DNA of 64,000 nt from NCBI GenBank assembly GCA_029821635.1, contig JALGSW010000042.1:19202-83201 (forward strand), given 5' to 3'. The notes beneath the pieces are model-generated. The model saw nothing but the letters and a program-made list of their open reading frames with translations, ran no database searches and was not told where the DNA came from. This document shows, piece after piece, positions 6,261 to 64,000 of this stretch. Made by a program: the position numbers and the translations under genes. Within the stretch, counting starts at the first letter, position 1. The number at the start of each line of letters is the position of its first letter. Source of the stretch: Candidatus Zipacnadia bacterium (GTDB lineage Bacteria > Armatimonadota > Zipacnadia > Zipacnadales > UBA5352).

Positions 6261-6282
6261 GGCCCGAGTCCTCTCGCGGCGC

Positions 6283-10110: not shown

Positions 10111-10155
10111 TGGCGCAACACACACACTGCATGGATGAAGGAGTGATGAATACGT

Positions 10156-11759: not shown

Positions 11760-12110
11760 ATGAGTTTCGGTGGAAAACATCGGCCTTCGTCTGCGGCCGG
11801 CACGGCCCCAGGCCGTGTCTTTCTTGACCGGCGAGGTTTTCCACATCGTTATCCACACTTGTGGAAAACCTTCGTCACCCTCCCCACGTGGGCAGAGTAT
11901 ACCAGAACCCAAATCGCAATGCAAAGGGAATCTGGGAAATCCCCTGATTCCGTGATACATGGCTATGAGAGGCCTCTACGGGCAATATGGGACTGCGTTG
12001 GGGGCCCCGGCAGGCGGTGCAGAGGAAAAAAATCTCCTGTCCATAATGTTGAAAACCTTAACGATGGTGGAGAGACGAAACGCCCATTCTGCGACGAAAA
12101 CGTGTCAGTC
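11760..12110. other. candidate oriC / dnaA autoregulatory region (DnaA boxes + AT-richer stretch)
   Basis: 640-nt non-coding gap upstream of dnaA. It contains the box cluster, further GTGGAAAAC and TGTCCATAA variants, and locally lower GC (gaggaaaaaaatctcctgtccataatgttgaaaacc). Confidence 0.5.
11837..11868. promoter_or_regulatory. cluster of three DnaA boxes (TTTTCCACA, TTATCCACA perfect, TGTGGAAAA inverted)
   Basis: Read directly: ggTTTTCCACAtcgTTATCCACActTGTGGAAAAcc, ~225 nt upstream of dnaA. Confidence 0.7.
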
Positions 12111-12262
12111 TCGTGCTTTCCGGCGGACGCATGCTGCTGAAGGGAGCAACGAGCTCGGCCTGCCCGCCCGCTGCCGCGCGGTTTGTGGGAAGGCGGAGTG
12201 TAACCTCCGCAAAGCGCGGGGACACTTCAGAAGCTCCTGGGCCCGACGCCCGGGACCGCCCC

Positions 12263-13687: not shown

Positions 13688-13821
13688 TGAGAAGACTCCC
13701 CGGTCACTGCGTGTTGTCCAATGGGATCGCGAGCTATATGGACGGTATTCCACACGGCATCTGGCTCCGCCTTCAGAGGGCAGAGAGCAACAACTGCGAC
13801 GGCAACGACGACGACGACCGT

Positions 13822-13852
13822 AACAGGATTCGGCGCTGCGCGCCGACAGGAT
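13822..13852. repeat. family C element (AACAGGATTCGGCGCTGCGCGCCGACAGGAT)
   Basis: Core hairpin GGCGC-TGC-GCGCC flanked by the direct repeats ACAGGAT. Followed by gacaacggcacaggataaggc. Confidence 0.85.
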
Positions 13853-13924
13853 TGGACGACAACGGCACAGGATAAGGCACCGGCCGGGCAAGGGGGGACG
13901 GCGAAGGCGGCAAGGGCCCGCGAG

Positions 13925-15277
13925 CTACGGCCGCAGCGGGCGGCGGCGGTCGATCAGGTCCGCGCGTACGCCAAGCTGCTCCAGGTACTCAATATACGCT
14001 GCGTGCAGGCGCTGCGCCTGGTCGGGATGCTCGGCGAGTACGTCGCGCGCCTGCGCCGGGTCCTCGGAAGTGTGATACAGCTCCGGTTCGGCGAGCGCCC
14101 CCGCGTGCTGGAGCGTCCACTCGCCATCGTTGATCGCGTTGTACTGCCGCATGTCGTCGGGCGCGTCGAGCTTGCCGGAGGTGACCGCGACCTCGCGCGA
14201 CCCCGGCCCGCCCGCGAGAGCCTTCAGCACCGAGACCCCATGTGTGTCCGCGGGCGCGTCGAGGCCCATGATCTCCATCAGCGTCGGCGCGATGTCCACC
14301 GGCTGGCAGAGCGCATGGCTCACGAGCCCCTCCGGCAGATTCGGCGCGCGCATCAGCAGCGGCACCCGCGCGACCTCGTCGTAGAATTGCCAGCCCGCCT
14401 TCGGCTCGAGCACCGTGTGCTTGCCAATGTACTCGTGCTCGCCATGATACCAGCCGTGGTCGGAGGTGAACGCAACCGCCGTGTCCTCGGCCAGGCCGAG
14501 GTCCTCGAGCTTCTGCAGGAAGCGCCCGATCGCCCGGTCCATCATCGTGATCGAGCCCGCGTAGAGCGCACGGGCGTGCTGCAGCTCGGCTTCGGTGAGG
14601 TAGCCCGCGTGGTCGTAGCGCGGGTAGATCGCCTCATCGCCCTCGTAGCCGGGATCGTACATGTCCGTGTAGTGCCTCGGCGGCAGCCACGGCTCATGCA
14701 CGTCGAAGGTGTCGATGAGCAGGTAGAACTTCTCATGCGCCTGATTGCGCTCAAGCCACTCCTCGGCGGCGCGGAACGTCTTCGGCGACGGCCAGTCGGC
14801 CTCGTTGTCGCGCGCGCAGTAGTTGCGCGACCACGGCTTCACCCAGTTCTGCGCCTGCCGCAGCTTGTCCGGATCGCACGGGACCTGCCAGTCCACCGGC
14901 TCGGTGCGCCAGCGATCGGCGATGTGCCCGCGGATCCACTCGACGCCGTGGAAGCCACGATGGTAGTTCATCCCCGGCGACATGAGCTGCGCATGATCGG
15001 CGATGAACTGCGTGACGTAGCCCTGCGCGTTGAGGCGCTCCTGAAGGGCGGAGTTCCCGGCGGCGATCGGTGCCCAGCCGGTGGTGTGAAAGACGTAGTT
15101 GGAGCACATCAGGTCATGCCGCTGGGGCACCGTCGGGAACGAGCCGACGTAGCAGTGCTCGTAGGTCACGCCGGACGCGGACAGGTCGTCGAGTGCGGGC
15201 GTCTGCACCCAGCCGTTGCCGTAGCAGCCGAGATAGTCGCGGCGGAGCGTGTCACAGACGATGAGAACCAGGTTCAC
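13925..15277 (-). CDS. sulfatase-family protein (iduronate-2-sulfatase-like), cytoplasmic, non-canonical active-site motifs
   Basis: TSDHGWYHGEHEY and NLVLIVCDTLRRDYLGCYG resemble the IDS-type sulfatase signature regions. The first metal-binding Asp is Cys and no CxPxR/SxPxR motif is obvious. GTG start at 15275-15277 with GGAGG 9 nt upstream. The track ORF extends to 15505. Confidence 0.6.
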   Translation of the reverse strand: MNLVLIVCDTLRRDYLGCYGNGWVQTPALDDLSASGVTYEHCYVGSFPTVPQRHDLMCSNYVFHTTGWAPIAAGNSALQERLNAQGYVTQFIADHAQLMSPGMNYHRGFHGVEWIRGHIADRWRTEPVDWQVPCDPDKLRQAQNWVKPWSRNYCARDNEADWPSPKTFRAAEEWLERNQAHEKFYLLIDTFDVHEPWLPPRHYTDMYDPGYEGDEAIYPRYDHAGYLTEAELQHARALYAGSITMMDRAIGRFLQKLEDLGLAEDTAVAFTSDHGWYHGEHEYIGKHTVLEPKAGWQFYDEVARVPLLMRAPNLPEGLVSHALCQPVDIAPTLMEIMGLDAPADTHGVSVLKALAGGPGSREVAVTSGKLDAPDDMRQYNAINDGEWTLQHAGALAEPELYHTSEDPAQARDVLAEHPDQAQRLHAAYIEYLEQLGVRADLIDRRRPLRP

Positions 15278-15374
15278 GGTGAGTCGCCTCCGGGAGCAGC
15301 GTCGTTCGCGCTGGGGGGAGGGTTCGACGGGGCGGGCGGCGGGGCCTTCGGGGGAACGGCGCCTCTCCCCCCTC

Positions 15375-15440
15375 GTCCCGAAGGATCGCGCCGTTTGCGA
15401 TCCGAGGGAGAGGGGGGCGGGGGGGGAGAGGCCGCGTTTG
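15375..15440. repeat. family E-like nested palindrome (…CCCGAAGGATCGCG-CCGTTTG-CGATCCGAGGGAGAGGGGGG…)
   Basis: Between the divergent sulfatase-like and C45 genes. The inner loop is the reverse complement of CAAACGG. Confidence 0.6.
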
Positions 15441-15506
15441 CCGTCGCCCTGAAGTAGGGCACCGGCGCCCCCGTGGCGAACGAACTCGCCGGAGGTCGAT
15501 GCCACG

Positions 15507-16523
15507 ATGCTCTACCTGACAACCGAGGGCCCCGACCGCGAGCGAGGTGTGCAGCATGGCCGGAAGTTCGGCGTGGAGATCCGCCGCGCGCTCCAGCACG
15601 CCCGCTGGGCCGACGGCGGCTCCGCGGCCGAGCGCGAGGCCGCCCAGGCCATGTGGGCGTGGCTCAACGACCACCAGCCGTGGCTGGCACAGGAGATCAC
15701 CGGCATCGCGCAGGGGGCCGAACTGCCGCTCGACGCCGCCCGGCACCTGAGCCTCTTCTCCGCCACGCGCCAGTTCGGCGAATGCACCACGCTCGGTTTC
15801 TGCGACTCCGATCGCGGCCCAATCCTGGCGAAGACCTTCGACATCGGCGCCCAGCGCGATGTGTATCTGCTGCACCGCGTGCGGCCGACCGGAGGCTACA
15901 GCTTCCTGCGCGTGAGCTGGGCCGGGAACGTCTGGGCGCCGACGGGCATCAATGAGGCCGGGCTGGCCGTCGGAGGGTCATCAACGCCCGCGCTGCCCGA
16001 CCAGGACCCCTACGCGATGCCGTGGCACCTGACGCTCAACGCAGTCCTGCGCGAGTGCGCGACCAGCGCGGACGCGGTGGCGCTGCTGGCGTCGATGGAC
16101 CTCGCGGGCAAGGGGCATAACTACGCGATCATGGACGAGCAGGGCGACGGGGCGCTCGTGCAGAAGTGCGGCGACCGGCAGGCGGTCGTCACACCCGAAT
16201 GCGACGTGATCTGCGGCACGAACCACTACACGACGCCGGAGTTCGAGGACATCCCCGCGCCGACGGGTGACGCAGGGCACAGCTCCCTCGCGCGGCTGGC
16301 GTGGATGCGCGAGACCTTCATCGAGAGCAGCGACCGCCCGCGGCCGACGCTGCAGGGCCTGATCGACGCAGTGCGCCACGACGAGGGCGACGGGCGGCTC
16401 TGCCGCAAGGGGTTCCTCGGCGGGCACACACACTACGCGATGGTCTACGTGTGCCGCGAGCGGACGATGCTGGTGAGCGACGGCTACCCGTGCGAGACGG
16501 AGTTCGTGCCGCATACGGTGTGA
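15507..16523 (+). CDS. peptidase C45 / acyl-CoA:6-aminopenicillanic-acid acyltransferase-like Ntn hydrolase
   Basis: G-C-T-T autoprocessing site (QFGECTTLGF) and overall similarity to the IAT/C45 family. GGAGG upstream. Confidence 0.7.
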   Translation: MLYLTTEGPDRERGVQHGRKFGVEIRRALQHARWADGGSAAEREAAQAMWAWLNDHQPWLAQEITGIAQGAELPLDAARHLSLFSATRQFGECTTLGFCDSDRGPILAKTFDIGAQRDVYLLHRVRPTGGYSFLRVSWAGNVWAPTGINEAGLAVGGSSTPALPDQDPYAMPWHLTLNAVLRECATSADAVALLASMDLAGKGHNYAIMDEQGDGALVQKCGDRQAVVTPECDVICGTNHYTTPEFEDIPAPTGDAGHSSLARLAWMRETFIESSDRPRPTLQGLIDAVRHDEGDGRLCRKGFLGGHTHYAMVYVCRERTMLVSDGYPCETEFVPHTV

Positions 16524-17766: not shown

Positions 17767-17828
17767 CGCGGGGACGGTCTCGCCGCCGCTGAAGGCCCCC
17801 GGGCGGCTCGCGGCGAAGACGCGCCGGC

Positions 17829-18782
17829 ATGAATGAGACCGGAGACGGGCAATCCACACGGGCTGCCGGATTCGCGGCGGCCCTTTTCAGCGGCGCGGTC
17901 ATGGGCGTCACGTGGCCGCTGCAGAAGTACGTGCTCGCGCAGGGCGTCGTCGGCCCGGCGACGATGCACTGGCTCAACGTGATCGGCCTCGTCGCGATCA
18001 TGGCGCCGATCTTCCTGATCCGCCATAGAGGCCGGCTGCGCTACCCCGGCTTCTCCCCGCGCTGGCTGCTGCTGGTGGGCCTGGTCGCCTGTGTCATGCA
18101 CTTCTGCCGCAAGTGGGGCGTGAACGAGACCTCCTCCACCACCGCTGCGGTGGCCGAGCGCTCCGAGGTCGTCTTCGTCTTCATCCTCTCCTACCTGATC
18201 CTGCACAAGCCTGTGCGGCCGATCGGGTGGCTGGGAACGGTCCTGGTACTCTTCGGGACGATCACCGTGGCGCTCGTGGGCTCGGCGGAGCTGCACTTCC
18301 ACCCGCTGGGGGTCATCGCGCTGGCGATCACCGGCCTGACTGTTGCCGTCAACGCGACCATCATAAAGACGAAGCTCAGCGGCATCCCCAACGAGCTGAT
18401 CATCCTCGGCAGCATGGCGGTGCAACTGGTCGTATTCAGCGCGTGGGTGACCGGCGGTGGGCTGCTGCCCGAAGTGCGGGCGTTGATGGGCGTCCCGATG
18501 CTGGCCGCGCTGGTGGGCATGGGCTCGGTGGTCTGGGGCGGGAATCTGGCGATCTACTACTTCGCGCTCAAGCACGCGCCGATGTGGGCGGTGCGGATGC
18601 TCACGCTCAGCGGCCTGCCGGTGGCGACGCTCGCGGACCTGTGGGTGCTGCACGAGCCGGTGACGACCGGGCACGTCATCGGGCTCGTGGCGGCGATGGT
18701 CGGGGCGGGGCTGGTGATCCTCGCGGAGCGCAACGGCTGGAACGACGACGACGGGCTGGAAGCCCGTCCCACAAACGGCTGA
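17829..18782 (+). CDS. EamA/DMT family transporter (10 TM)
   Basis: Hydrophobic 10-helix pattern with two EamA halves. The last 10 codons (DGLEARPTNG) and the stop are supplied by a REP-like family B element. Confidence 0.8.
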   Translation: MNETGDGQSTRAAGFAAALFSGAVMGVTWPLQKYVLAQGVVGPATMHWLNVIGLVAIMAPIFLIRHRGRLRYPGFSPRWLLLVGLVACVMHFCRKWGVNETSSTTAAVAERSEVVFVFILSYLILHKPVRPIGWLGTVLVLFGTITVALVGSAELHFHPLGVIALAITGLTVAVNATIIKTKLSGIPNELIILGSMAVQLVVFSAWVTGGGLLPEVRALMGVPMLAALVGMGSVVWGGNLAIYYFALKHAPMWAVRMLTLSGLPVATLADLWVLHEPVTTGHVIGLVAAMVGAGLVILAERNGWNDDDGLEARPTNG

Positions 18783-21143: not shown

Positions 21144-21207
21144 GACAGGCTGGAAAGCCTGTCCTACAACGACAACGACTGACAGGCTGGAAAGCCCATC
21201 GTGTAGG
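21144..21207. repeat. family A palindromic element (GACAGGCTGGAAAGCCTGTCCTAC), two tandem copies, second degenerate
   Basis: Stem GACAGGC/GCCTGTC with loop TGGAAA. Intergenic between the aminotransferase and isomerase genes. Confidence 0.85.
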
Positions 21208-22966: not shown

Positions 22967-22990
22967 TGACAGGCTGGAAAGCCTGTCCTA
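22967..22990. repeat. family A palindromic element
   Basis: gacaggctggaaagcctgtcctacgaacg, between the convergent peroxiredoxin and URO-D genes. Confidence 0.85.
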
Positions 22991-23106
22991 CGAACGACTG
23001 ACGACGACGGCGTCTCACCCTCCCGGAAGGACGCCAACGGCATCTCCGTGGCACGGGCGTCTCGCCCGTGCAGAGCCGTTGCCACGCACAGACAACACCA
23101 CCTCTC

Positions 23107-31201: not shown

Positions 31202-31210
31202 CGGCAAGGG

Positions 31211-33073
31211 ATGCGCATGAAGCTTGTACTGAGCGCCGACAATCAGCCGGCGGCGAGCGTGGTCATCGAGGCCGACTCGCCGCCGGCCGTTTCTTTCGCC
31301 GCGAGTGAGTTGAGTCGCTACCTCGCGATCCTCACCGGCGGGCGGTTCCCTGTGTGTGAGGGGGAGGCGGCGGAGGGGGCGGTGATACGGCTGGGCACGG
31401 CGCCTCACCCCCCCGGCCTCCCTCTCCCTGGCGTCGCAGACGACGCGACGCAAGCGGGAGAGGGGGGAGAACGGCAGACGGGCTGGAAGCCCGTCCTACA
31501 AACGACAAACGGCACGACGCTGGCGCGTGGTTCGTACGCGTGGCGGGTGCATGAGGGTGGGGTGGAGGTCGTCGGGGAGCGGCCGGGGGCGGTGCTGCAC
31601 GCGGTCTACGCGCTGCTTGAGACGATCGGCTGCCGGTGGCTGCACCCGCGCGATGGCGGGGAGATCGTGCCGCGCATCCCGCGCATCGAGCTGGCTCTCG
31701 GCGAACACGCCGCGCAGCCCGAGCTGGCCCACCGCGAGCTGACGAACCTCCACTCGATCGACCGCGAGTACCCCCTGCACATCGACTGGATGGCGAAGAA
31801 CCGCCTCAACCGCTTCATGGCGTTCCTCAACGTGGAGGGCTCGCAGGAGGCGTTCGCGGAGTTCATCGAGCCCGAGCTGGCCGCGCGTGACATGGACGCG
31901 ACCCTCGGCCATCACAGCTTCCGCTTCCTGCTGCCACCCGAGCAGCACTTCGCCGACCATCCGGAGTGGTACGCGCTCATCGACGGGGAGCGCAGCCCCG
32001 ACGGGCAGCTCTGCACGTCGAACCCGGAGGTCGCCGAGCGGGCTGCCGAGCGCATCTGCGAGCTGTTCGACGCCCACCCGACCGTGGAGATGTTCGGCCT
32101 GTGGCCCAATGACGGCTTCCGCTGGTGCGAGTGCGACGAGTGCGCGAAGCTCGAGCCGCAGATGCCCTCGCGCTTGCGCTCCGACGCCCCGCGGCGCACC
32201 GACACCTACCGGCTCTTCGTGAACGCAGTTGCCGAGCGCGTCGCGCGGGCGCACCCCGACCGGCGCATCGGCGCGCTGGCCTACGTCAACTACGCCGACG
32301 CGCCCGAGGCGGTGCGGCCCGCGGACAACGTGGCGGTGTGCTTCGCGCCCTTCCTCCGCTGCCTCAAGCACCCGCTCCGCCCGGACGTGGAGTGCGAGCG
32401 GCTCAACGCCGCGTACGCGCGGGAGTTCGAGCGCTGGCGCGGGATGGTCGCGGGCGACCTCTACCTCTTCAGCTACCTCTCGCAGATACACACGCTCTCG
32501 CTGCCCTACCCGATCCACACGATGCTGCCGGCGAACTGGCAGTGGCTGATTGACGCGGGCTGCGACGGCTTCGTGATGGAGTTCGTGCCCGAGGAGTGGG
32601 GCGCGTTCGGCGCGAATCTCGAGCTGATCGCACGGCTCGCGTGGGAGCCCGACACCGACGCGCAGGCGTGGCTGGGGGAGCGTGACGAGCTGATCTACGG
32701 CCCGGCGGCGGCGGTGATGGGCGACTACCGGCGGGAGCTGGCTGAGGTCATGATCGCGGGCGGCGGCTGCACCGGGCACTACGACGTGACGTGGACGCGC
32801 GGAGCCGACGAGCGAACGCTGCGGGCAGCGCTGGACGCGCTCGGGAAGGCCCGGGCGCTCGCAGCCACCGGTGAGAAGCGGCACTGGCAGGCGGCGGAGC
32901 AGGCGTGGGTAGGGCTGGAGCTGCTGATGCGCGCGGGCGAGTGGCAGCGCCTGCTGCGCGACGGCCTGCAGGACCGCGCGGACGAGGCGCTGGAGCGCAT
33001 GGTGGCGTTCGCGTCGGAGCAGGCGGACAGCGGCGCGGTGGACGCGGCGAGGTATGAGCGGTTGCTCAGCTAG
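31211..33073 (+). CDS. DUF4838 domain protein (glycoside-hydrolase-like, GH20/GH67-type N-domain)
   Basis: N-terminal pattern of DUF4838 proteins (…ASELSRYLAILTG…, …LHAVYALLETIGCRWLHP). Contains an in-frame ~43-codon insertion made of palindromic repeat families E+B at 31392-31520. Confidence 0.65.
   Translation: MRMKLVLSADNQPAASVVIEADSPPAVSFAASELSRYLAILTGGRFPVCEGEAAEGAVIRLGTAPHPPGLPLPGVADDATQAGEGGERQTGWKPVLQTTNGTTLARGSYAWRVHEGGVEVVGERPGAVLHAVYALLETIGCRWLHPRDGGEIVPRIPRIELALGEHAAQPELAHRELTNLHSIDREYPLHIDWMAKNRLNRFMAFLNVEGSQEAFAEFIEPELAARDMDATLGHHSFRFLLPPEQHFADHPEWYALIDGERSPDGQLCTSNPEVAERAAERICELFDAHPTVEMFGLWPNDGFRWCECDECAKLEPQMPSRLRSDAPRRTDTYRLFVNAVAERVARAHPDRRIGALAYVNYADAPEAVRPADNVAVCFAPFLRCLKHPLRPDVECERLNAAYAREFERWRGMVAGDLYLFSYLSQIHTLSLPYPIHTMLPANWQWLIDAGCDGFVMEFVPEEWGAFGANLELIARLAWEPDTDAQAWLGERDELIYGPAAAVMGDYRRELAEVMIAGGGCTGHYDVTWTRGADERTLRAALDALGKARALAATGEKRHWQAAEQAWVGLELLMRAGEWQRLLRDGLQDRADEALERMVAFASEQADSGAVDAARYERLLS
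31478..31520. repeat. family B element inside the DUF4838 CDS (in frame), with AACGAC/AACGGC tail
   Basis: gacgggctggaagcccgtcctacaaacgacaaacggcacgacg. Confidence 0.8.
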
Positions 33074-39528: not shown

Positions 39529-39552
39529 CGGCGGACGGCTGTGTGTCGTTCG

Positions 39553-39576
39553 TAGGACAGGCTTTCCAGCCTGTCA
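39553..39576. repeat. family A palindromic element (inverted orientation)
   Basis: cgttcgtaggacaggctttccagcctgtcag. Same 31-mer as at 40304-40334. Confidence 0.85.
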
Positions 39577-40309: not shown

Positions 40310-40333
40310 GTAGGACAGGCTTTCCAGCCTGTC
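40310..40333. repeat. family A palindromic element; supplies the stop codon of gene 40332..42011
   Basis: cgttcgtaggacaggctttccagcctgtcag. Confidence 0.85.
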
Positions 40334-55175: not shown

Positions 55176-55199
55176 GACAGGCTGGAAAGCCTGTCCTAC
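55176..55199. repeat. family A palindromic element; supplies the TAG stop of the giant gene. A degenerate copy lies at 55088-55110
   Basis: gacaggctggaaagcctgtcctac. Confidence 0.8.
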
Positions 55200-58100
55200 A
55201 GCACCGTATTCGTCAGCATCACCGCCGAGATGCGCGCGCCGTCCTCGCGCGCGAGGATGCGGACGGTGTGCTCGCCCGCGTCGAGCTTCGCCGTCGGGCC
55301 CTGGGTCCACAGCCACTCGCCCATCCGGCCCGCGTTGCCGAACTCCACCGGGTCGGCGTCGTCGATCTGCGCGTAGAACGAATTGCCCTTGTCATCGAGC
55401 CACCAGCAGTGCCCGAGCAGCGTGTACTCGCCCGCCGTCGGGAGCGTCAGCGTCCACGTGGCCGAGCCCGCGTCATCAGCGGCCTGCCAGGGGCTCGGGT
55501 TGAAGCGCACGTCGCGCGGCACGTGGATGAAGCGCATCCCGCCGTCGTCGTCGATGGCGAACGGCTCCGTGAGCGCGGCTGCGTCCGCCTCGGACTGCTC
55601 ACGCACCATCGACTCCACGACGCGCACCGTGAAGTCGCGCTTCCACGTGCGGTCGCCGCAGGTAATCTCCAGCAGCGAGTCTGCCGAGCATGGCGCGGTC
55701 CCGTCGGGCGGACAGGCGGTGACGGTGGCGGTCGCGGTCTCGCCCGGCCCGATGGTGAGCGTGGTCGGCTCACACGCGATGCGCAGGAGCTCGGAGGTAC
55801 CCCGGAGCGTTGCCTCGACCGGCTCGTCGGTGGTGTTGCGCAGTTGCACCTGGCCCTGCCACGGCTGGTCCGGGCAGCAGATCGGGATGCTGTCGGGCAG
55901 GAGGACCTCCAGCGGCGTGATTCGCGGCTGCACGTGCGCGAGCGAGGAGTACATCCACGAACACGAGCGCGAGCTTGGGCCGGTCATGCTCAGCAGCTCC
56001 TCGGTCAGCGTGCCGAACCAGTCATCGCCGGTGTAGCGGTAGGGGTAGCTGAGCGCGCCCGTGCACTGGGTGGTGGCGCTGTAGCCGGTCTTGCAGCGTG
56101 GCGCCTGCTTGTACCAGAAGCGCGCGGGCGGCCCCATCGGCTCGGTGGTCAGCCACTCACCGACGCCGAGGCACATGCGCATCGCGCGCTCCTCACCGGT
56201 GGCCTCGTAGAAGCGCCCGAGGCCGCGGCCGAGGATGCCGTGCATGAATGCGGTGCCGCCCTCGTAGGAGGGCTGCTCGGAGATCGGCACGCTCACCACG
56301 CCGCGCACCGGGTCCTGGATCGTCGCCATCCAGTCGAGGATCGAGTCGCCGGCGGCCTTGTAGCGCTCGTCACCGGTCATGCGGTAGAGGCTCGAGAGCG
56401 CGATGAGCGTCCAGCCCGGCCCGCGCTCCTGGCCGCCGGCGCCGTAGCGACCGTTCTCGACCGTCCAGACGTACCAGTCGCCCATCTTGCGCGCGGTCTC
56501 CTCGGCGCGCACGTCACCGGTGAGCAGCCAGTAATCCAGCAGGCCCTCGACCCACGAGTGGCCGTTGCTCGCGCCACCGACGCAGTGGTCCGGGAACCAG
56601 CCCTCGTCGACAATATGCCTGGAGTTGTGATGGTGCGGGGCGCCGATGAGATGCTCGCGGCCCGGGGCCCAGTGGTAGCAGTCCGTGGCTTCGTAGTGCC
56701 GCGCGGCCTCCTCACCGATCTCGAAGTAGCGCCGGTCACCGGAGCGGAACCACTCCACGAGGAAGCCGTGATGGTGGTCATACTCCTGGTTGCTCCAGAA
56801 CGTGTAACTCGGCCCGTAGCCCCACTCGAAGGTGTCGTCCCCGTAGTTCTCCATCCCGTACTCGCTGCGCTTCTCGCGCTTGGCCATGTAGCCCTCGTGG
56901 AGGTGGTCGATGGCCTCCTCGTAGCGCGGGAAGAGGAACTCGTTCTCGGCGGGCATCTCACCGAGCGCCAGTGTGCCGACTGCGTAGCGCGAGTCGGACG
57001 CAGCGATGAGACGGTCGCGGAAGGCCTCGAAGGCGTCGGCCGAGTTCGTGTCCGTGCCTGCGGGCTCGAAGCCCAGCATCACCTCATGCGTGATGCCCTC
57101 GCCCTGGTAGAGCACGAACGGGCCGTCGGAGAACTGCGTGTGGCTGTCCATCGGGATCAGGTCGAGCGCGATGCCGCCCGCGCCAACCTCGACGGCCTTC
57201 GGCCACTTCTCCCACCACCAGCGGGTGGCGACGGCGAGCGCCGGGCCGTTGCCGCCCGTGGGCGCGAGGCGCGCGAAGCCCTGCGTGCGAACCTGCTGTG
57301 CGGCGGGACCATCGGCGCCGATCGTGCCGCTGTCAAGCTCGAGCTGGCTGCACGAGGCGGACGCGCCGGAGGCGGGCGCGTCATCGCCCCAGACGGTCGC
57401 CTGCGCGCCATCGCCCGCCCACGGGCAGGGCATGTTCAGCCGCACCTGCCGGAGCTTCTGCGTCTCCGTGTCCTCCTTGTGCGTGAAGACGTAGCTCAGG
57501 CGCGTGGTCGGCGAGCCGAGGTAGAACTCCTGGATGATGTCGAACTCCAGCAGCGTCGAGCCATCTTCGGCGGTGTGCCGGCCGATGCGCCGGATCACCG
57601 CGCGCAGCGGCCCAGCCTCGATCACCTGCGTGTCGGTGACCTCGCCCAGCGCGGAGGAGTATTGCGTGCCATCCTCGGCGGTCACCAGCGCGGCCCACGG
57701 CTCATCGCCGATCATCTGCGTGCCGTCGAGCACCGCGCTGTCCACGAGCGTGCCGCGGGTGGTGCTCAGCGTGGCCTGCAGCGGCCCGGTGTTCACGGCG
57801 ATGCGGCCGTCCTGCTCGTTGACGGTCAGTATCCGCCCCGGGAACTCCGCGGGCCGCACCTGTGAGCCGAACTCGACGGTGTACTGCGCGTTCGCATTGG
57901 CATCGACCGACGCGGGGAAGCTCACCAGCGCGAACATCACTGAGCCGTCGGGCCAGGAGTTGAGCGCCCGCGCCTGCACCGGGACCTCCGCGCCGGAGGC
58001 GTCGAGCACGCGCAGATTCCGCGCTGAGGTCAGCGCCCCGTACGCGAAGGGCAGGCCCTGCGTGGCGACTTCGCCCGAGCGCGCGACGCCCGCGTGGTCG

Positions 58101-59836
58101 CTGACGGTCATCGTGAACGAGTCGCGCGCAGGCTCCTCGCCCGGCTGGTAACACGGTGGCTCGATCGCGACCTCCTCGCGCACGGGCTTGCGCTCGACCA
58201 GCTCGCGCGGGAGCAGCGCGATCTCCTCGACGCGCATGACCTCCGTGCGGTCGCGCGTGGCGTCGAGGCGCACCTCGTCGCCGCGATTGACCTGCACCGG
58301 GCCGAAGACCGCGTGCCACTGCCCGTAGTCATCGGCGGTCATTTGCACCTCGCCGACCTGCTTCCCGCCAACCGACAGCCGCAGTCGCGACTGGCCGGTG
58401 TGGTCGTCGCGCAGGCCGATGGCGGCGTAGTACTGGCCGCTCTCGCCGGTGAACGGGCGGCGCAGCGAGCCCTCCGGCGCGCCGATTTGCATCGCGCCAT
58501 CATCCTCGGCGAAGCCCTCGGCCTCCATCTGCCGCGCGGGGATGCGCTGGATGCCCGGGAACATCTCGACGCCCGCCCAGAAGACCTCGGTCAGGAAGGG
58601 CTTCTCCGTGCCCTGGCGGTCGCGCACCTGCAGGGAGATGGTGACCTCGTCCTTGCCGCGGATCGCGTTGGAGATGTCCGCGAGGTAGAAGCGCCGGTCG
58701 GCCGGGCGGGGGTTGCGGCCCAGCACGTCCATGTCCCAGACCTGCTCGCCATCGACGAGCACTTCGCAGAAGCGCATATCGCGCTTCTTGTTCTCGTAGG
58801 TGGCTACAGCGCGGTCACCCTCATAGTCCCTGTCCACGCCGCCGCAGTAGTCATCGGAGACGTAGAAGCGCAGGTAGCAGCCGCCCTCGGCGTCCACGGG
58901 GACGGTGCGGCTCACGCGCCCGAAGGCGCCCTCCTCGGTGTCCTCGTGCGGGTGCGAGATCGTGAAGACCGCCCGGCGGTCGGGCTTGCCGGTGAACTTG
59001 CCCTGCGACTCGAAGGTCCAGCCTGCGCCTTGGCGCCCGTCGTCGAGCGGCCACGCGCCGCCCGCGGTGGGCTCGGGCAGCAGGTCGGAGACGCTGCGGT
59101 GGTAGCACTCGGGCACGGCGCTCGCTCCTTCCGGCCAGTCGGGGGAGTGTGAGAGCGCATACGTGACGAGGTTCGCGAACAGCTTCGCGCCGGCGGAATC
59201 GGGCCCGTCGCCATCGCTGAACCAGGCATGCTCGGGGATCAACTGCGTCAGCACGATCCGCCCCATGCCATACTCAAGCTCGATCATCCCGTAGTGCTCG
59301 CCATCGCTGGCGGCGGGCTCCGCGTCCCAGCCCTGCTGCTTCCCGGCGCTGATGAGTGGCACCCAGCCCTCGCCCAGGTCGTACCAGGCGTCGTAGATGC
59401 TGCCCATGTGGACCTGCAGGAGCGTCTCGCGCGTGAGTTCGTTCGGCTGGTGGAAGATCGGGTGGTCGGGCACGAGGACCTCGCCGAACTCGTACGAGCG
59501 ATCGTTCTTCGCGGGCACGGGCAGCCACGCATCGGCCCTGCGGTTGCGCATGCCGAGGAAGACGCCGCCGCTGTCGACGAAGCGCCGGAGCCTGGTAGGC
59601 GAGTCCTTGATGGGCGAGCGGTCCTCGTCCATGGCGCTGATGATGACGGTGTAGTCGAAGATGTTGATGCGCCCGGCCTTGTAGTCGGGCCAGGTGGTCT
59701 GCTCGAAGGGGATGTCGAGGGCTTCAAGGGCGGACGCGGTCCCGCCTCCGCCGACGAGCAGCACGCGCGGCTCGGCGGCAAGGACCGCACTCGCTACGAG
59801 CAGGACGATCAGCGCGACGGTCAGTGTGCGGGTCAT
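55196..59836 (-). CDS. giant secreted multidomain protein (1546 aa): ThuA/GATase1-like N-domain, heparinase-II/III-like or six-hairpin central region, C-terminal CBM-like domain
   Basis: ORF 55196..60079 trimmed to MTRTLTVALIVLLVASAVLAA. His/Tyr-rich region (…YDHHHGFLVEWF…APHHHNSRH…) resembles lyase/hydrolase toroids. Domain calls are tentative. The stop TAG lies in a family A repeat. Confidence 0.6.
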   Translation of the reverse strand: MTRTLTVALIVLLVASAVLAAEPRVLLVGGGGTASALEALDIPFEQTTWPDYKAGRINIFDYTVIISAMDEDRSPIKDSPTRLRRFVDSGGVFLGMRNRRADAWLPVPAKNDRSYEFGEVLVPDHPIFHQPNELTRETLLQVHMGSIYDAWYDLGEGWVPLISAGKQQGWDAEPAASDGEHYGMIELEYGMGRIVLTQLIPEHAWFSDGDGPDSAGAKLFANLVTYALSHSPDWPEGASAVPECYHRSVSDLLPEPTAGGAWPLDDGRQGAGWTFESQGKFTGKPDRRAVFTISHPHEDTEEGAFGRVSRTVPVDAEGGCYLRFYVSDDYCGGVDRDYEGDRAVATYENKKRDMRFCEVLVDGEQVWDMDVLGRNPRPADRRFYLADISNAIRGKDEVTISLQVRDRQGTEKPFLTEVFWAGVEMFPGIQRIPARQMEAEGFAEDDGAMQIGAPEGSLRRPFTGESGQYYAAIGLRDDHTGQSRLRLSVGGKQVGEVQMTADDYGQWHAVFGPVQVNRGDEVRLDATRDRTEVMRVEEIALLPRELVERKPVREEVAIEPPCYQPGEEPARDSFTMTVSDHAGVARSGEVATQGLPFAYGALTSARNLRVLDASGAEVPVQARALNSWPDGSVMFALVSFPASVDANANAQYTVEFGSQVRPAEFPGRILTVNEQDGRIAVNTGPLQATLSTTRGTLVDSAVLDGTQMIGDEPWAALVTAEDGTQYSSALGEVTDTQVIEAGPLRAVIRRIGRHTAEDGSTLLEFDIIQEFYLGSPTTRLSYVFTHKEDTETQKLRQVRLNMPCPWAGDGAQATVWGDDAPASGASASCSQLELDSGTIGADGPAAQQVRTQGFARLAPTGGNGPALAVATRWWWEKWPKAVEVGAGGIALDLIPMDSHTQFSDGPFVLYQGEGITHEVMLGFEPAGTDTNSADAFEAFRDRLIAASDSRYAVGTLALGEMPAENEFLFPRYEEAIDHLHEGYMAKREKRSEYGMENYGDDTFEWGYGPSYTFWSNQEYDHHHGFLVEWFRSGDRRYFEIGEEAARHYEATDCYHWAPGREHLIGAPHHHNSRHIVDEGWFPDHCVGGASNGHSWVEGLLDYWLLTGDVRAEETARKMGDWYVWTVENGRYGAGGQERGPGWTLIALSSLYRMTGDERYKAAGDSILDWMATIQDPVRGVVSVPISEQPSYEGGTAFMHGILGRGLGRFYEATGEERAMRMCLGVGEWLTTEPMGPPARFWYKQAPRCKTGYSATTQCTGALSYPYRYTGDDWFGTLTEELLSMTGPSSRSCSWMYSSLAHVQPRITPLEVLLPDSIPICCPDQPWQGQVQLRNTTDEPVEATLRGTSELLRIACEPTTLTIGPGETATATVTACPPDGTAPCSADSLLEITCGDRTWKRDFTVRVVESMVREQSEADAAALTEPFAIDDDGGMRFIHVPRDVRFNPSPWQAADDAGSATWTLTLPTAGEYTLLGHCWWLDDKGNSFYAQIDDADPVEFGNAGRMGEWLWTQGPTAKLDAGEHTVRILAREDGARISAVMLTNTVL

Positions 59837-59994: not shown

Positions 59995-60879
59995 TCACTC
60001 GCAGATCGCCTGAAGCTCCGCGAGGCGTTCGGGTGACTGGCGCTGCGCGTCCGGCAGCGGGTCGGGTAGGCCCAACCATGAGTACTTCCCGCCCGTCGCC
60101 GGGTTGAAGGGCAGAAGCTCAATCCGCTCCACGCCGAGGCTCCTTGCCAGCGTCGCGATCTCGCGGACCGCCTCGTCCGTGTCATTCACGCCCGGGATCA
60201 GCGGCACGCGCACCAGCACGTCCGCGCCGCTCGCGAGCAACGCCCGCAGGTTCGCGATGATCTGCTCGTTCGGCGCGCCCGTGTACGCCTCGTGGGCCGC
60301 CGAGTCCGCCAGCTTCAGATCGTAGAGCCACAGGTCCAAGGCCTCGGCGAGGCGCTCGATCGTCTCCCATGGCGCGAGCCCGCAGGTCTCCAGCGCCACG
60401 TGGATGCCCGCGTCGCGGCAGAGGCTCGCGATGGCGTGCGCGAAGTCGGCCTGCGCGGTCGGCTCGCCGCCGGTGATCGTCACCCCGCCGCCCGTGCGCG
60501 CGAAGAAGGGCGTCAGGCGCGCTGCCATGTCGGCGATCTCGCCCGCGGTCGCCTCGCGGCCCTTGACCTCCAGCGCGCCCGCCGGGCAGGCCTCGATGCA
60601 CGCGCCGCACAGCGTGCAGCGCGCGCGATCCTCCGGGGCGATCAGCCCCGGTCGGCGGATGCGCTGCGGGCAGGCATTCACGCACGCGCCGCAGTGTGTG
60701 CAGCGGGTCTCGTACCAGACGATCTCGGGCGCGAATGCCTGCGACTCGGGGCTGTGACACCACGCGCAGTGCAGCGGGCAGCCCTTCAGGAAGACGGTCA
60801 TACGCACGCCGGGTCCATCGTGCAGCGCGGTCTGGTCGATATCGAAGATCGTGCCGGTCACATCGCGCAAGTCCTTCAC
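59995..60879 (-). CDS. glycyl-radical enzyme activating protein (radical SAM with ferredoxin-like insert)
   Basis: GCPLHCAWC (CxxxCxxC) followed by CTHCGACVNACP and CTLCGACIEACP motifs. GTG start overlaps the GRE stop (GTGA) with GAGGAG upstream. The rest of the track ORF is antisense overlap. Confidence 0.8.
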   Translation of the reverse strand: MKDLRDVTGTIFDIDQTALHDGPGVRMTVFLKGCPLHCAWCHSPESQAFAPEIVWYETRCTHCGACVNACPQRIRRPGLIAPEDRARCTLCGACIEACPAGALEVKGREATAGEIADMAARLTPFFARTGGGVTITGGEPTAQADFAHAIASLCRDAGIHVALETCGLAPWETIERLAEALDLWLYDLKLADSAAHEAYTGAPNEQIIANLRALLASGADVLVRVPLIPGVNDTDEAVREIATLARSLGVERIELLPFNPATGGKYSWLGLPDPLPDAQRQSPERLAELQAICE

Positions 60880-63164
60880 CAGCCCAACTCCTCGCGCGCG
60901 ATGACTTCCTCCTGCGCGTGCTTGCTCAGCAGCACGAAGGGCACGAGGTAGCCGCCGATGCGCACGAACAGGTCGCGGTGCGCGTCGGGATTCGCCTGCG
61001 CCGCGCGCATCTGCTCGGTGGAGGCGAGGTTGAACTGAAGCTGGTAGGCGCCGAGGTCCATCGCGGCCTCGGTGAGGCCCTTGAGCGCGTCGGCGCCCTC
61101 GTCGGTGTCGAGCACACTCGCCTGGAAGCGCACGTTGCAGGTGGTGCCGCCGAGCCCGCGCGAGTTGTCGAACTCGTCGGTGATCGAGCGTACCAGCGCC
61201 GGGAAGCCGTTCGTCTGCACGCCGGTGCAGTTCATGATCGAATTCGCCAGCGGCTCGCCCGCGAGGCGGCCGTCGGGTGTGGCGGGCGTGCGCTCGCCGT
61301 AGGCGATCCAGACGGTCCAGCCGAGGAAGCCGGGCAGGAACGGGCCTCCGAGGTAGTTGCGGTTGCCCTCGACCAGGTCCGACCAGCCCCCCGCGACTTC
61401 GCCGAAGAGCCGGTTGCACTGGGCATCGTCGGTCCCATGCTTGGGGCAGTCGCGCTTGATCGCGCGGCGCAGGTCGTCGTGGCCGCGGAAGTTGTCGCGG
61501 ATCGCCGAGCGGAAGTTGTCGAGCGTGTACTCGCCGCGCTCCTCGACCAGCGTCTGCACCGCCGCGAGCGCGTCCACCACGTTCGACGCGCCGACCGCCT
61601 CGGGCTGGATGAAGTTGTAGAGCGCGCCGCCGTCGGACATGTTCCGGCCGCTCTCGATGCAGCCCTCGATGAGGCACGAAAGCAGCGGGAAGGGCCGGTG
61701 GATCGACTGCAGCCACAGGTCGCGGTTGCACTGGATCACCGCGCCATCGACCGCATGGGCCAGCACGCGCTCGTAGGCGTGGCGGAGTTCGGCGTACGTT
61801 GTAGGACAGGCTTTCCAGCCTGTCAATGTCCTACGAACGGCCCAACTGGCGGGCGGGTCGGTCAGCCGCAGGCCGACGTCCGCCGCGAAGTCATCGGCAT
61901 GGCCCTTCTCCGGGTGCACGCCGCCGAAGAGCGCGTACTCCAGGCACATCGCGAGGTTGACGTAGGGCCATGCGACGTGCGGGTTGCTGCGGCCCATGAT
62001 CGAAGTCTCGGTGCAGGTGCTGGGCAGGTGATCGACCGCGTGCTCGAAGGGCACGCCGTGCCGCACGAGGCCCTTCGTGATTTGGTCGGAGTTGAAGATC
62101 GATGGCTGGCCCTTGCCGTTGCGCAGCAGGGCCATCGCGTGGCGCATGAACTGCGGATCGATGTCCGCGTGCCACGAGATGTCGATGCCGGGGAAGTACA
62201 TCTCCACCCGATCGGTCAGCTCGAGGATGCGGAACGAAAGCTCGTTGGTGCCGTCGGAGCCGTCGGGCTTGCGGCCGCCGATCACGAGAATCACAGCGCT
62301 CATCGACGGGCCCTGGAACTCGTTGCACTTGATCATGAGCTGGGCCAGCAGGTCCTCGGTAAGCGCCTCGTCGAGCGTGCCCGCATCGCGTTCGGCCTCG
62401 TAGAAACGCCGCAGCCACTGATCGATGCGCCCCGGGCCGAAGCAGTGGTGATGCTGGGAGTTCTCCAGCGCGCAGCCCATGAACATGAACCAGCCGAGCT
62501 GGATCGCCTCGCGGAAGCTGCGCGGCGGCTCGTGGGCGATCTGCCGGCAGGTCGCGGCGGCCTCGCGCAGGTCATCGGCCCACGCGGGATCGGTGGCGTC
62601 GTCGGCCATCTCCTGCGCGAGGTCGGCGTAGCGCTCGATGAGCCGCTGCAGGCCGCCGAGGGCGATGCGCGCGGCCTCGTAGAAGTGCTGCTTCGCAGGC
62701 GTCTGCGGGTCGTCGGGCCGCAGCGCGTGCTCGGCGTCGTCGATGCGCTCCATGATGCCGCCGAGGCCCTGCTTGCACGCGGTCGGGTAGTCCGGCGCCA
62801 TGTGCCCCTCGGAGACGAAGCCGCGCCACTGCTCACGCCCGAGGTAGGCGTTCGCCTCGGCGATCTCCGCGGCGAGGGCCTCATCGGCGTGCGTGTTCGG
62901 GTGCCGGCCGACGAGCCTCTCGCCCTCGCGGATGCGCACGGGCATCTGCTCGAAGAGGTGCGCGACGGCCTGCGCCACGCGTATCTGCCGGCGCGGCTCA
63001 CCCTCGGTGGCGCGGAAGCTCTCGGCCATGATGATCGCGCGCTCGTCGAAGGCGCCCCCGTCGGCGAGGACGTCCTCGCGCAGCGCGCGCGACCACTCCG
63101 AGAGCCCGTCGGGGCCTACGGGGCGGGGCAGGGCGTCGGTTGTACGATCTGCGACGGTTGCCAT
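60876..63164 (-). CDS. glycyl radical enzyme (PFL-like / 1,2-diol-dehydratase-lyase family)
   Basis: ORF 60876..63644 trimmed to MATVADRTTD (ATG 63162-63164, GAAGGAGA RBS). Cys-loop LIEGCIESG. Glycyl motif FVRIGGYLVPF near the C-terminus. Contains an in-frame family A repeat at ~61795-61840. Confidence 0.8.
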   Translation of the reverse strand: MATVADRTTDALPRPVGPDGLSEWSRALREDVLADGGAFDERAIIMAESFRATEGEPRRQIRVAQAVAHLFEQMPVRIREGERLVGRHPNTHADEALAAEIAEANAYLGREQWRGFVSEGHMAPDYPTACKQGLGGIMERIDDAEHALRPDDPQTPAKQHFYEAARIALGGLQRLIERYADLAQEMADDATDPAWADDLREAAATCRQIAHEPPRSFREAIQLGWFMFMGCALENSQHHHCFGPGRIDQWLRRFYEAERDAGTLDEALTEDLLAQLMIKCNEFQGPSMSAVILVIGGRKPDGSDGTNELSFRILELTDRVEMYFPGIDISWHADIDPQFMRHAMALLRNGKGQPSIFNSDQITKGLVRHGVPFEHAVDHLPSTCTETSIMGRSNPHVAWPYVNLAMCLEYALFGGVHPEKGHADDFAADVGLRLTDPPASWAVRRTLTGWKACPTTYAELRHAYERVLAHAVDGAVIQCNRDLWLQSIHRPFPLLSCLIEGCIESGRNMSDGGALYNFIQPEAVGASNVVDALAAVQTLVEERGEYTLDNFRSAIRDNFRGHDDLRRAIKRDCPKHGTDDAQCNRLFGEVAGGWSDLVEGNRNYLGGPFLPGFLGWTVWIAYGERTPATPDGRLAGEPLANSIMNCTGVQTNGFPALVRSITDEFDNSRGLGGTTCNVRFQASVLDTDEGADALKGLTEAAMDLGAYQLQFNLASTEQMRAAQANPDAHRDLFVRIGGYLVPFVLLSKHAQEEVIAREELGW
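61801..61824. repeat. family A palindromic element located inside the glycyl-radical-enzyme CDS, in frame
   Basis: gtaggacaggctttccagcctgtcaatgtcctacgaacg. Translates on the gene strand as …RRTLTGWKACPTT… without a stop. Confidence 0.8.
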
Positions 63165-63201
63165 GATCGGTCTCCTTCGCGTGAATGCGAACGACAACAG
63201 C

Positions 63202-63245
63202 GACGGGCTGGAAGCCCGTCCTACAAACGACGTAACGTCAACGAC
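63202..63245. repeat. family B element with AACGAC tail, between the GRE start and the sulfatase stop
   Basis: aacgacaacagcgacgggctggaagcccgtcctacaaacgacgtaacgtcaacgacg. Confidence 0.85.
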
Positions 63246-63249
63246 GTCG

Positions 63250-63312
63250 TTCTCCCCCTCTCCCGCTTGAAACCGCGTCGTTTGCGGTTTCCAGGGAGAG
63301 GGGGCCGGGGGG
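63250..63312. repeat. family E nested palindrome: CCCCCTCTCCC-[GAAACCGCG-TCGTTTG-CGGTTTC]-GGGAGAGGGGG
   Basis: tctccccctctcccgcttgaaaccgcgtcgtttgcggtttccagggagagggggccgggggg. Confidence 0.75.
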
Positions 63313-63327
63313 TGAGGTAGCCTTACG

Positions 63328-64000
63328 CTAGTTAAACACCGCCCGCTGCTCCCGGATGATGCGCCGCTGGCCCTCGGCCCAGGGGTCGAGGAGCTCGCGC
63401 AGATACCAGACCTCTTCCGGATTCGCGTCGGCGAGGTTGTTCGCCTCGCTGAAGTCCTCAGCGATGTTCGACAGCCACACCTCGGGCACCGAGTCGTCGT
63501 TGTCGCGCAATCCTCCGTTGAGCACCAGCTTCCAGTCGCCGCGGCGGATGGCGGTCTGGCCCGCGAGGTGCCAGGCGATCCAGTCGTGGGGATTATCCGC
63601 CCCGTTGACCACCATGTCCAGCAGCGAGACGCCGTCGAGGTCATAGCGGGACAGATCGCCGCCCACCGCCTCGAGCATCGTGGGGAAGATGTCCATCATG
63701 ATACCCACTTCCGAGGACACCTGCCCGCCGGCGATGGTTCCCGGCCAACTCATGATCGCGGGCTCGCGGACGCCGCCGTCCCAGCAGGTGCCCTTGTGCC
63801 CCTTCAGGCCGCCGGTGGTGCCGCCGTAGTAGGGGTCCCTGGTGCCATCGAGCCAGTTGCGCGTCTCCCGCGACGGGCCGTTGTCCGACGAGAAGAAGAT
63901 GAGGGTGTCCTCGCGGATGCCCTCGGCCTCCAGCGCCGCGATGATCCGGCCCACGCCATCGTCCATGCACGCGATCATTGCCGCCATGATCTGCTTGTCC
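63328..64000 (-). CDS. sulfatase (arylsulfatase family), C-terminal part; N-terminus beyond window edge
   Basis: FFSSDNGP and GHKGTCWDGGVREPAIMSWPG sulfatase signature regions. The reading frame stays open to the window edge. Confidence 0.8.
   Translation of the reverse strand, partial: DKQIMAAMIACMDDGVGRIIAALEAEGIREDTLIFFSSDNGPSRETRNWLDGTRDPYYGGTTGGLKGHKGTCWDGGVREPAIMSWPGTIAGGQVSSEVGIMMDIFPTMLEAVGGDLSRYDLDGVSLLDMVVNGADNPHDWIAWHLAGQTAIRRGDWKLVLNGGLRDNDDSVPEVWLSNIAEDFSEANNLADANPEEVWYLRELLDPWAEGQRRIIREQRAVFN

Follow-up and report, generated by a model that had tools for sequence, protein, structure and literature searches.

Glycyl radical enzymes (GREs) catalyze demanding reactions under anaerobic conditions, and every clade newly characterized so far has brought a new pathway to light (choline, hydroxyproline, isethionate, and anhydro-sugars). 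Among the GREs, all eliminases of the C-O, C-N, and C-S type and all isomerases use the glutamate of a Cys-x-Glu (CXE) loop to hydrogen bond and deprotonate the substrate hydroxyl, and His164 of glycerol dehydratase (GD) is the proposed proton donor to the leaving hydroxyl (2026 review, PMC13450708). The isomerases YbiW and PflD open the ether ring of 1,5-anhydro-hexitol-6-phosphates (an example of C-O cleavage inside a sugar), and other GREs are known to eliminate good leaving groups, such as trimethylamine (TMA) and sulfite (PMC13450708). Sulfatases are not mentioned in that review, and in the literature we came across no GRE with an assigned part in sulfated-polysaccharide turnover. Here, we describe a GRE and its activase encoded next to a sulfatase gene in a 64,000-nt stretch of DNA from a Candidatus Zipacnadia bacterium (phylum Armatimonadota; assembly GCA_029821635.1, contig JALGSW010000042.1, positions 19,202 to 83,201), which is referred to here as the window.

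We consider it probable (approximately 0.7) that the two genes form a functional module in which a GRE of an uncharacterized family would cleave a C-O bond of a desulfated sugar or polyol by radical chemistry. As an annotation-level lead, the enzyme would best be filed within the CXE eliminase/isomerase kind.

The GRE and activase genes

The GRE gene (60876 to 63164, minus strand) is a single unbroken open reading frame (ORF) encoding 762 amino acids (aa), the length given in the first-pass annotation of this DNA. The product matched the Pfam families PFL-like (PF02901; 3.9e-119) and Gly_radical (PF01228; 1.9e-14), and the ATG is preceded by a Shine-Dalgarno sequence, GAAGGAGA, 7 bases ahead. 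The adjoining activase gene (59995 to 60879, minus strand) starts with GTG and encodes a 294-aa radical S-adenosylmethionine (SAM) enzyme of the GRE-activating type. The stop codon TGA of the GRE overlaps this start codon in a GTGA at 60876 to 60879, which is the translational coupling described earlier. The activase scored 310.7 bits with TIGR02494, the NCBIfam glycyl-radical-activase model (cut-off, 174), and has Radical_SAM and Fer4 domains in Pfam. Its motifs comprise the radical-SAM cluster motif C34-x3-C38-x2-C41 (60757 to 60780, minus strand) and a ferredoxin-like insert (60586 to 60702, minus strand) with two CxxCxxCxxxCP motifs (residues 60 to 70 and 88 to 98). These are the two extra 4Fe-4S motifs of the first-pass annotation, and they are visible in the DNA as direct repeats (D1/D2) with a spacing of 84 nt. 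A ferredoxin-type activase had been singled out as a special feature of the locus, but it is the norm: the vast majority of GRE activases have a ferredoxin-like domain with eight extra cysteines, which is missing only from the activases of pyruvate formate-lyase (PFL) and class III ribonucleotide reductase (PMC13450708).

With 53 relatives as input, AlphaFold2 gave a GRE model with a mean predicted local distance difference test (pLDDT) score of 92.4. Foldseek aligned the model with more than 40 GRE structures at template modeling (TM) scores of 0.82 to 0.88, including 0.87 (22 to 27% identity) for GD, 1,2-propanediol dehydratase (PD), Archaeoglobus fulgidus PFL2, and trans-4-hydroxy-L-proline dehydratase (HypD). 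We conclude that the genes are genuine, i.e., an intact GRE with its own translationally coupled radical-SAM activase, at scores well above chance.

A separate GRE family

None of the NCBIfam equivalog models for GREs reached its cut-off with the window GRE, and all were wide misses. The scores were 395.2 bits for TIGR01774 (PFL2-3 subfamily; cut-off, 678.2), 332 for NF043068 (HypD; 1100), 256 for TIGR04394 (CutC; 1050), and 53.6 for TIGR01255 (PFL; 994.2). Models for sulfonate-handling GREs (IslA/IseG, HpsG, and HpfG) gave 315.7 (NF048009) and 278 bits (NF048011) against cut-offs of 1000, the higher score (316 when rounded) being that for HpfG. The earlier statement that the substrate class is unassigned holds. 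Compared with solved structures as a single sequence, the GRE scored 291 bits with GD, 289 with HypD, 277 with A. fulgidus PFL2, 253 with PD, 250 with CutC, and 43 with Escherichia coli PFL. A profile of the family kept the same order, from 489 bits (GD; 442 to 446 for the PDs) down to 118.

The protein database holds at least 120 relatives (50 to 100% identity; 794 to 1,788 bits). Where named, their sources are metagenome-assembled genomes (MAGs) of Armatimonadota, Planctomycetota, and allies, and their public names are "pyruvate formate lyase family protein," "formate C-acetyltransferase," "hypothetical protein," and, once, "choline trimethylamine-lyase." A scan of one genome per species detected 43 loci, every one in a MAG, that were assigned to candidate division WS1, Candidatus Zipacnadia, other Armatimonadota, Planctomycetota, Poribacteria, Latescibacterota, Desantisbacteria, and two archaeal bins; the closest match (85% identity) was in a WS1 bacterium. 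The archaeal-labeled bins (L027 and L030; Thermococci and Hadarchaeota) may reflect horizontal transfer or misbinning. We found no biochemical characterization of any family member in the literature.

A neighbor-joining tree with 200 bootstraps was prepared from 22 family members, E. coli PflB, PflD, and YbiW, GD, HypD, two PDs, and a partial CutC. The last five references were rebuilt from printed HMMER alignments, four of them (GD, HypD, and the two PDs) without N termini and CutC ending before the glycyl radical domain, and the deep branching is therefore not to be over-read. The family was monophyletic in 200 of 200 bootstraps, as was the subclade of approximately 760-aa proteins that holds the window GRE in 99.5%. 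GD and the PDs formed a clade (98%) outside of which the family fell, and HypD grouped only loosely with the family (16 to 59%). Identity in the trimmed alignment was 27 to 31% to characterized GREs and 21% to PflB. By sequence, the GRE belongs to a separate, previously uncharacterized GRE family and is neither a PFL nor any characterized GRE.

The placement outside the canonical PFLs, a check that the first-pass annotation had proposed, bears on the public label "formate C-acetyltransferase," according to which the GRE would be a PFL of mixed-acid fermentation. Besides the names of the relatives, an acetate kinase gene 3 kb downstream in two related loci (L048 and L095) fits this label. We nevertheless give it practically no credence, given the score of 43 bits for PFL versus 291 for GD, the 53.6 bits with TIGR01255 against a cut-off of 994, a single Cys-x-Glu where PFL has a Cys-Cys pair, and an activase with the ferredoxin insert that the PFL activase lacks. 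The sequence refutes a PFL, and the firm grouping with canonical PFLs that would have refuted the first-pass reading is clearly absent.

Catalytic residues

Motifs were counted over 111 full-length family members, and invariance was assessed in an alignment of 53 sequences. The Cys loop of the GRE is S382-T-C384-T-E386-T (62004 to 62021, minus strand), as identified by alignment with C433/E435 of GD, C434/E436 of HypD, and the GC(I/V)E of YbiW and PflD. The loop P-S-T-C-T-E-T-S, including Cys384, was invariant, and STCTE was present in 109 of the 111 members. The first-pass annotation had mistaken GCIESG (residues 501 to 506; 61647 to 61664, minus strand) for the Cys loop. This is a conserved noncatalytic GRE motif, which pairs in HMMER alignments with DNCIGKG of GD, DDCIEKG of HypD, DDCIKRG/DDCIGRG of the PDs, and EGCMESG of CutC, whereas the catalytic Cys433-x-Glu435 of GD pairs with Cys384/Glu386.

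The glycyl radical fingerprint, R735-I-G-G738-Y...L746...Q751..V754..R757 (60894 to 60962, minus strand), was located by a regular expression, with Gly738 as the predicted radical site. This segment (RIGGYLVPFVLLSKHAQEEVIAR; residues 735 to 757) fits the published C-terminal fingerprint of GREs, RVxG[FWY]x6-8[FL]x4Qx2[IV]x2R (PMC13450708), at every position but one conservative V-to-I change; 106 of the 111 members have RIGGY, and 5 have RVGGY. The motif FVRIGGYLVPF that had been reported earlier is present (residues 733 to 743), but with this single deviation it does not deserve the description "unusual." His121 (62802 to 62804, minus strand) aligns with His164 of GD and lies in an EGH motif (107 of 111 members). 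The PDs, HypD, YbiW, and PflD also have His at this position; CutC has Asp (GGGD).

Comparison of the active-site residues, likewise proposed beforehand, revealed that CXE and His121 are kept, while Asp447 of GD (conserved in GD and both PDs) is replaced by an invariant Ala398. Ser282 of GD corresponds to an invariant Cys241 within an HHC motif, and Asp278 of HypD aligns with His240. The residue ahead of the catalytic Cys is Thr and not the usual Gly, approximately 10 residues around the GD segment FGGYPMY are deleted, and the strand after the second half-barrel reads PGFLGWTVW in the family versus PGLYPSSIN in GD/PD. By these residues, the family would be equipped for C-O cleavage as an eliminase or isomerase, and its pocket would match that of no studied enzyme.

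The first-pass annotation had favored an anaerobic step on diols derived from fucose or rhamnose, which would make the GRE a B12-independent 1,2-propanediol/glycerol dehydratase. The closest matches in sequence and fold are GD and PD, the family keeps CXE and the counterpart of His164, the pocket positions aligned with GD are mostly neutral or hydrophobic, and an alcohol dehydrogenase gene lies upstream of the sulfatase in one locus (L049). A diol dehydratase is nonetheless improbable in our assessment. Identity to GD/PD is only 28 to 29% in the trimmed alignment, TIGR01774 reached 395 of the 678 bits needed, the family lies outside the GD/PD clade with 98% support, and the positions of Asp447, Ser282, and FGGYPMY are occupied by an invariant Ala, by Cys, and by a deletion, respectively. 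Moreover, genes for a bacterial microcompartment (BMC) shell or an aldehyde dehydrogenase, for which the first-pass annotation had advised looking, and for phosphotransacylase were absent from the Pfam-scanned ORFs of the window and from 12 Pfam-annotated homologous loci.

The upstream sulfatase

The next gene upstream of the GRE, on the same strand, encodes a sulfatase and runs off the window, which has its last 223 codons (63328 to 64000, minus strand; Pfam Sulfatase, PF00884, 9.4e-20). This part is 77% identical to full-length orthologs of 441 to 449 aa. In nine further loci (L005, L007, L009 to L014, and L050), the gene next upstream of the GRE, in the same orientation, is an orthologous sulfatase gene; such a gene also directly precedes a partial GRE on two metagenome contigs (L082 and L089) and lies 2.1 kb upstream in L008. 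The order sulfatase-GRE-activase therefore occurs on 12 contigs besides the window (11 direct, one with a 2.1-kb gap). The GREs of this sulfatase-linked subclade are at least 76% identical to the window GRE, and their sulfatases are 77 to 94% identical to each other. Beyond the trio, the genes vary: acetate kinase and an Mbh-type hydrogenase (L048 and L095); alcohol dehydrogenase, heparinase, and glycoside hydrolase family 123 (GH123) genes (L049); a methyltransferase and an SSF transporter (L050); and a PcRGLX-like protein (window). Because the trio persists while the flanking synteny is scrambled, a functional link can be argued. Searching from the sulfatase side, we also found an 80% identical sulfatase adjoining a GRE and activase (L095). 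The recurrent order of leaderless sulfatase, GRE, and activase is a new contextual finding, and the link is strong but lineage specific.

In nearly all loci, the activase gene adjoins the GRE gene, as a rule with an overlap or a gap of a few bases; in L003, a SIMPL-domain gene lies between the two. All-against-all clustering of the ORFs of 48 loci identified the sulfatase as the sole further recurrent real neighbor, and only the GRE, the activase, and shadow ORFs were general across loci. More distant GRE relatives (50 to 67% identity) have differing neighbors, none of which is conserved across them: GH123, GH2, melibiase, GxGYxYP, NPCBM, LamG, and short-chain dehydrogenase/reductase or aldolase genes. 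L001, L004, and L019 have unrelated sulfatases at distances of up to 10 kb. The common theme around the family is glycan degradation. An apparent upstream cluster in the Planctomycetota loci proved to consist of wrong-frame translations, and the short ORFs preceding the GRE in L002 and L003, candidates for small subunits, were unrelated to each other. In another subclade (64 to 67% identity), a DUF362 protein is encoded directly upstream of the GRE only in L004 (1 to 984) and L018 (1 to 1173), and L002 has a distant DUF362-ferredoxin fusion two genes upstream.

The full-length sulfatase orthologs begin with M(P)ADRPNIIVIYTDD and have no signal peptide; they are therefore taken to be cytoplasmic. 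Two of these GRE-adjacent genes (L049, 3110 to 4438; L050, 148 to 1479) encode leaderless proteins with CSGSR instead of C-x-P-x-R, and CSGSR was found in the nine GRE-adjacent orthologs examined and in 11 database clusters; in the window, the motif site would lie beyond position 64000. Wider relatives (approximately 60% identity; more than 100 clusters) are also leaderless and keep C-S-P-S-R. The best solved relatives of the full-length orthologs are S1_19 kappa-/iota-carrageenan sulfatases (243 bits over 427 residues), which act on galactose-4-sulfate (PDB 6PRM and 6B0J). Unlike these enzymes, the orthologs are leaderless and have C-S-G-S-R.

The noncanonical CSGSR casts doubt on classical sulfatase activity, and one might consider that the GRE itself is a radical "sulfate-lyase," which would abstract hydrogen beside C-O-SO3 and eliminate sulfate while the sulfatase-like neighbor serves another role. 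GREs that expel good leaving groups (TMA and sulfite) exist. We regard this reaction as very unlikely, however, since the family has an invariant His at the site from which poor leaving groups receive a proton, an aid that sulfate could do without, the sulfonate-handling GRE models were far under their cut-offs, and most family members are without any sulfatase-like neighbor.

Proposed reaction and its weight

We infer the proposed class of chemistry from residues common to characterized enzymes; the gene structure, fold, catalytic residues, clade, and synteny on which it is placed are observed. The activase would cleave SAM and take hydrogen from Gly738, and the radical would move from Gly738 to Cys384. 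The Cys384 thiyl radical would then take hydrogen from the carbinol carbon of the substrate, Glu386 would deprotonate the hydroxyl at that carbon, and His121 would protonate the oxygen leaving group on the neighboring carbon. The net reaction would be a 1,2-elimination (dehydration) or a ring-opening isomerization, yielding a carbonyl product. Judging from the synteny, the substrate would be supplied by cytoplasmic desulfation of a compound from a sulfated glycan. Because the module follows a cytoplasmic carrageenan-type sulfatase, its substrate would be a hydroxylated small molecule (sugar or polyol) released by desulfation, likely one from anaerobic sulfated-glycan breakdown in WS1/Zipacnadia-type Armatimonadota. 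An anhydro- or deoxy-sugar route would be an attractive idea because of the carrageenan affinity of the sulfatase and the sugar-ether precedent of YbiW/PflD.

A more far-reaching proposal is that these genes represent a new GRE functional class, in which anaerobic radical C-O cleavage acts on a sugar freed from sulfated glycans and uncultured Armatimonadota possess a dedicated cytoplasmic "desulfate, then radical-cleave" module with a leaderless CSGSR sulfatase. We put this forward tentatively, as a possibility that is more doubtful than probable. The enzyme might, for example, dehydrate a desulfated galactose-type sugar or open an anhydro-sugar ether in the manner of YbiW/PflD. Nothing relevant that links GREs with sulfatases, with Armatimonadota/Zipacnadia, or with anhydro-galactose was found in the literature.

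Several points weigh against radical cleavage of a desulfated sugar or polyol. Because Thr precedes the catalytic Cys, and Asp447 and Ser282 of GD are replaced by Ala and Cys, the chemistry may differ from that of the known eliminases. Only the activase is conserved family-wide, and the sulfatase link is thus limited to one subclade, in which related genomes could in part have inherited the gene order. Because these phyla are rich in sulfatases, looser co-occurrence within 10 kb is weak evidence. The window carries just the 3' part of the sulfatase gene, and the maturation and activity of the sulfatase appear uncertain because CSGSR departs from CxPxR. Finally, a 74% identical CSGSR sulfatase in L096 occurs without a GRE; an NmrA/epimerase-like gene follows it, with GH123 and CBM9 genes nearby.

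The clade comprises more than 110 members, all from uncultured glycan-degrading phyla, under public labels that are generic for the PFL family or, once, choline TMA-lyase. Its active-site signature (STCTE, HHC, Ala for the diol-dehydratase Asp, and PGFLGWTVW) is unlike that of every studied GRE, and this signature, together with the tight linkage to a cytoplasmic sulfatase in one lineage, makes the clade a well-defined biochemical target. If the sulfatase link is functional, the module would provide an O2-independent step in sulfated-polysaccharide turnover in sediments and digesters.

Palindromic repeats and the leader RNA

The window contains two related families of short palindromic elements, which are called genome-wide. 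The type A 24-mer, GACAGGCTGGAAAGCCTGTCCTAC, has six exact copies against 0 expected (21144 to 21167, 22968 to 22991, 39552 to 39575, 40310 to 40333, 55176 to 55199, and 61801 to 61824); five lie outside genes or at their edges, and the sixth is inside the GRE gene. The type B element, GACGGGCTGGAAGCCCGTCC(T/C)AC, has four copies (4283 to 4305, 18750 to 18772, 31477 to 31499, and 63202 to 63224), none being expected by chance, and one of these is in the GRE leader. All copies of both types are flanked by AACGAC/AAACGGC-type sequence and resemble repetitive extragenic palindromic (REP) elements, most of them at gene ends or between genes. Two further type B copies appear to have been absorbed into proteins: a DUF4838 protein (ORF 31202 to 33073) reads ...QTGWKPVLQ... 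upstream of its Pfam domain at the copy 31477 to 31499, and an EamA transporter (ORF 17793 to 18782) ends in ...DGLEARPTNG* at the copy 18750 to 18772.

The in-frame repeat within the GRE, correctly reported in the first-pass annotation, is an exact 24-nt type A copy at 61801 to 61824 encoding LTGWKACPT. It lies in a surface loop of approximately 32 aa (residues ~423 to 456; 61797 to 61898, minus strand), which is specific to the ~760-aa subclade in the family alignment, hypervariable in sequence, and the site of the lowest internal pLDDT (66 at residues 441 to 450). The closest homolog (L005/L048) has a decayed palindrome at the same loop site. Other GC-rich palindromic inserts (e.g., CCGGGCCGGGACGGAGACCGGCCCC) with the same kind of flanks add 13 to 28 residues to this loop in L006 (1514 to 1678), L007 (9375 to 9542), and L010 (10849 to 11019). 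Palindromic repeats seem to have landed in this loop repeatedly.

An exact repeat copy within the coding sequence could also signify that a mobile palindrome has landed in the GRE gene and that the gene is decaying or inactive. We see scarcely any likelihood of this: the frame is intact, the length of 762 aa matches that of the closest homologs (759 to 761 aa), the copy is confined to the hypervariable low-pLDDT loop, and every catalytic motif is intact. Since homologs carry varied inserts in the same place, the loop tolerates repeats and the gene is not disrupted. Ogata et al. are said to have described, in Science in 2000, Rickettsia palindromic elements that insert in frame into protein-coding genes. 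The elements of the window resemble these by description, as short scattered palindromes tolerated in frame in surface parts of proteins; they differ in sequence, in a far shorter core (24 nt), and in belonging to an unrelated phylum.

The sulfatase-GRE intergenic leader (63165 to 63327, minus strand) consists of three stacked hairpins, one of which is the type B copy at 63202 to 63224, and its predicted fold had an energy of -82.1 kcal/mol (z = -5.4 versus shuffles). Rfam gave no indication of a riboswitch or other known RNA in the leader, with no match to the leader at E <= 1 and none at the gathering score in the entire window. Promoter and terminator scans yielded nothing above chance.

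Other genes in the window

Downstream of the activase, a secreted 1,546-aa protein with PcRGLX-like and weak or borderline GH127-like domains in Pfam is encoded at 55196 to 59836 (minus strand); it is not among the neighbor clusters common to other GRE loci. The pair is therefore not sandwiched between sulfatase genes, as had been described, but has one partial sulfatase upstream and this protein downstream. The ORFs of the window that were scanned with Pfam include just one more sulfatase, at a distance of 45 kb (13925 to 15511). The location among glycan-degrading genes beside a sulfatase, also described in the first-pass annotation, was confirmed by the Pfam scans: heparinase-II/III-like, DUF4838, beta-helix/LamG, DUF6259/GH30C, and lambda-carrageenase-like propeller genes are interspersed with housekeeping genes. 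The scanned ORFs included no anaerobic sulfatase-maturase gene, and the window has no tRNA genes.

DciA, recF, dnaN, and dnaA homologs occur in a row on the minus strand (4326 to 11709), with a GH76-like ORF and a 247-aa ORF with no Pfam match between them. Beside dnaA, approximately 550 nt without a convincing gene (~11710 to 12260) form a candidate replication origin. Between the dnaA region and the distant sulfatase, a 542-aa ORF (12263 to 13891, minus strand) reads in translation as having several Cys-rich 4Fe-4S-type motifs and a duplicated C-terminal segment.

Comparison with known glycyl radical enzymes

PflB, the source of the public annotation name, belongs to the same superfamily as the window GRE; the two differ in their low score (43 bits), in the Cys-Cys pair on the PflB loop, and in the type of activase. 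CutC differs in having Asp at the His164-equivalent position, and the GRE misses the TIGR04394 cut-off. HypD (PDB 6VXC) is the second-best single-sequence match (289 bits) and has CXE and the His, but identity is 31%, the NF043068 cut-off is missed, and Asp278 of HypD aligns with His240 of the GRE.

The best sequence and fold matches are GD from Clostridium butyricum (PDB 1R8W) and the PDs (PDB 5I2A and 9RCO), which have in common with the GRE the ten-stranded barrel, the CXE loop, the His164 equivalent, the glycyl fingerprint, and a ferredoxin-type activase. The GRE departs from them by its 28 to 29% identity and separate clade, by Ala398 for Asp447, Cys241 for Ser282, and Thr for Gly before the catalytic Cys, and by the deletion of FGGYPMY and PGFLGWTVW in place of PGLYPSSIN; its scanned neighbors include no microcompartment or aldehyde-processing genes. 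YbiW and PflD, which were likewise long labeled "PFL-like," resemble the GRE in CXE and in the same His (GDAH/GQGH versus EGH). They are 27 to 30% identical to it and lie on another branch, and their genes in E. coli adjoin those of phosphotransferase systems (PTS), aldolases, or sugar phosphatases, whereas the GRE of the window and its closest relatives follow a leaderless sulfatase.

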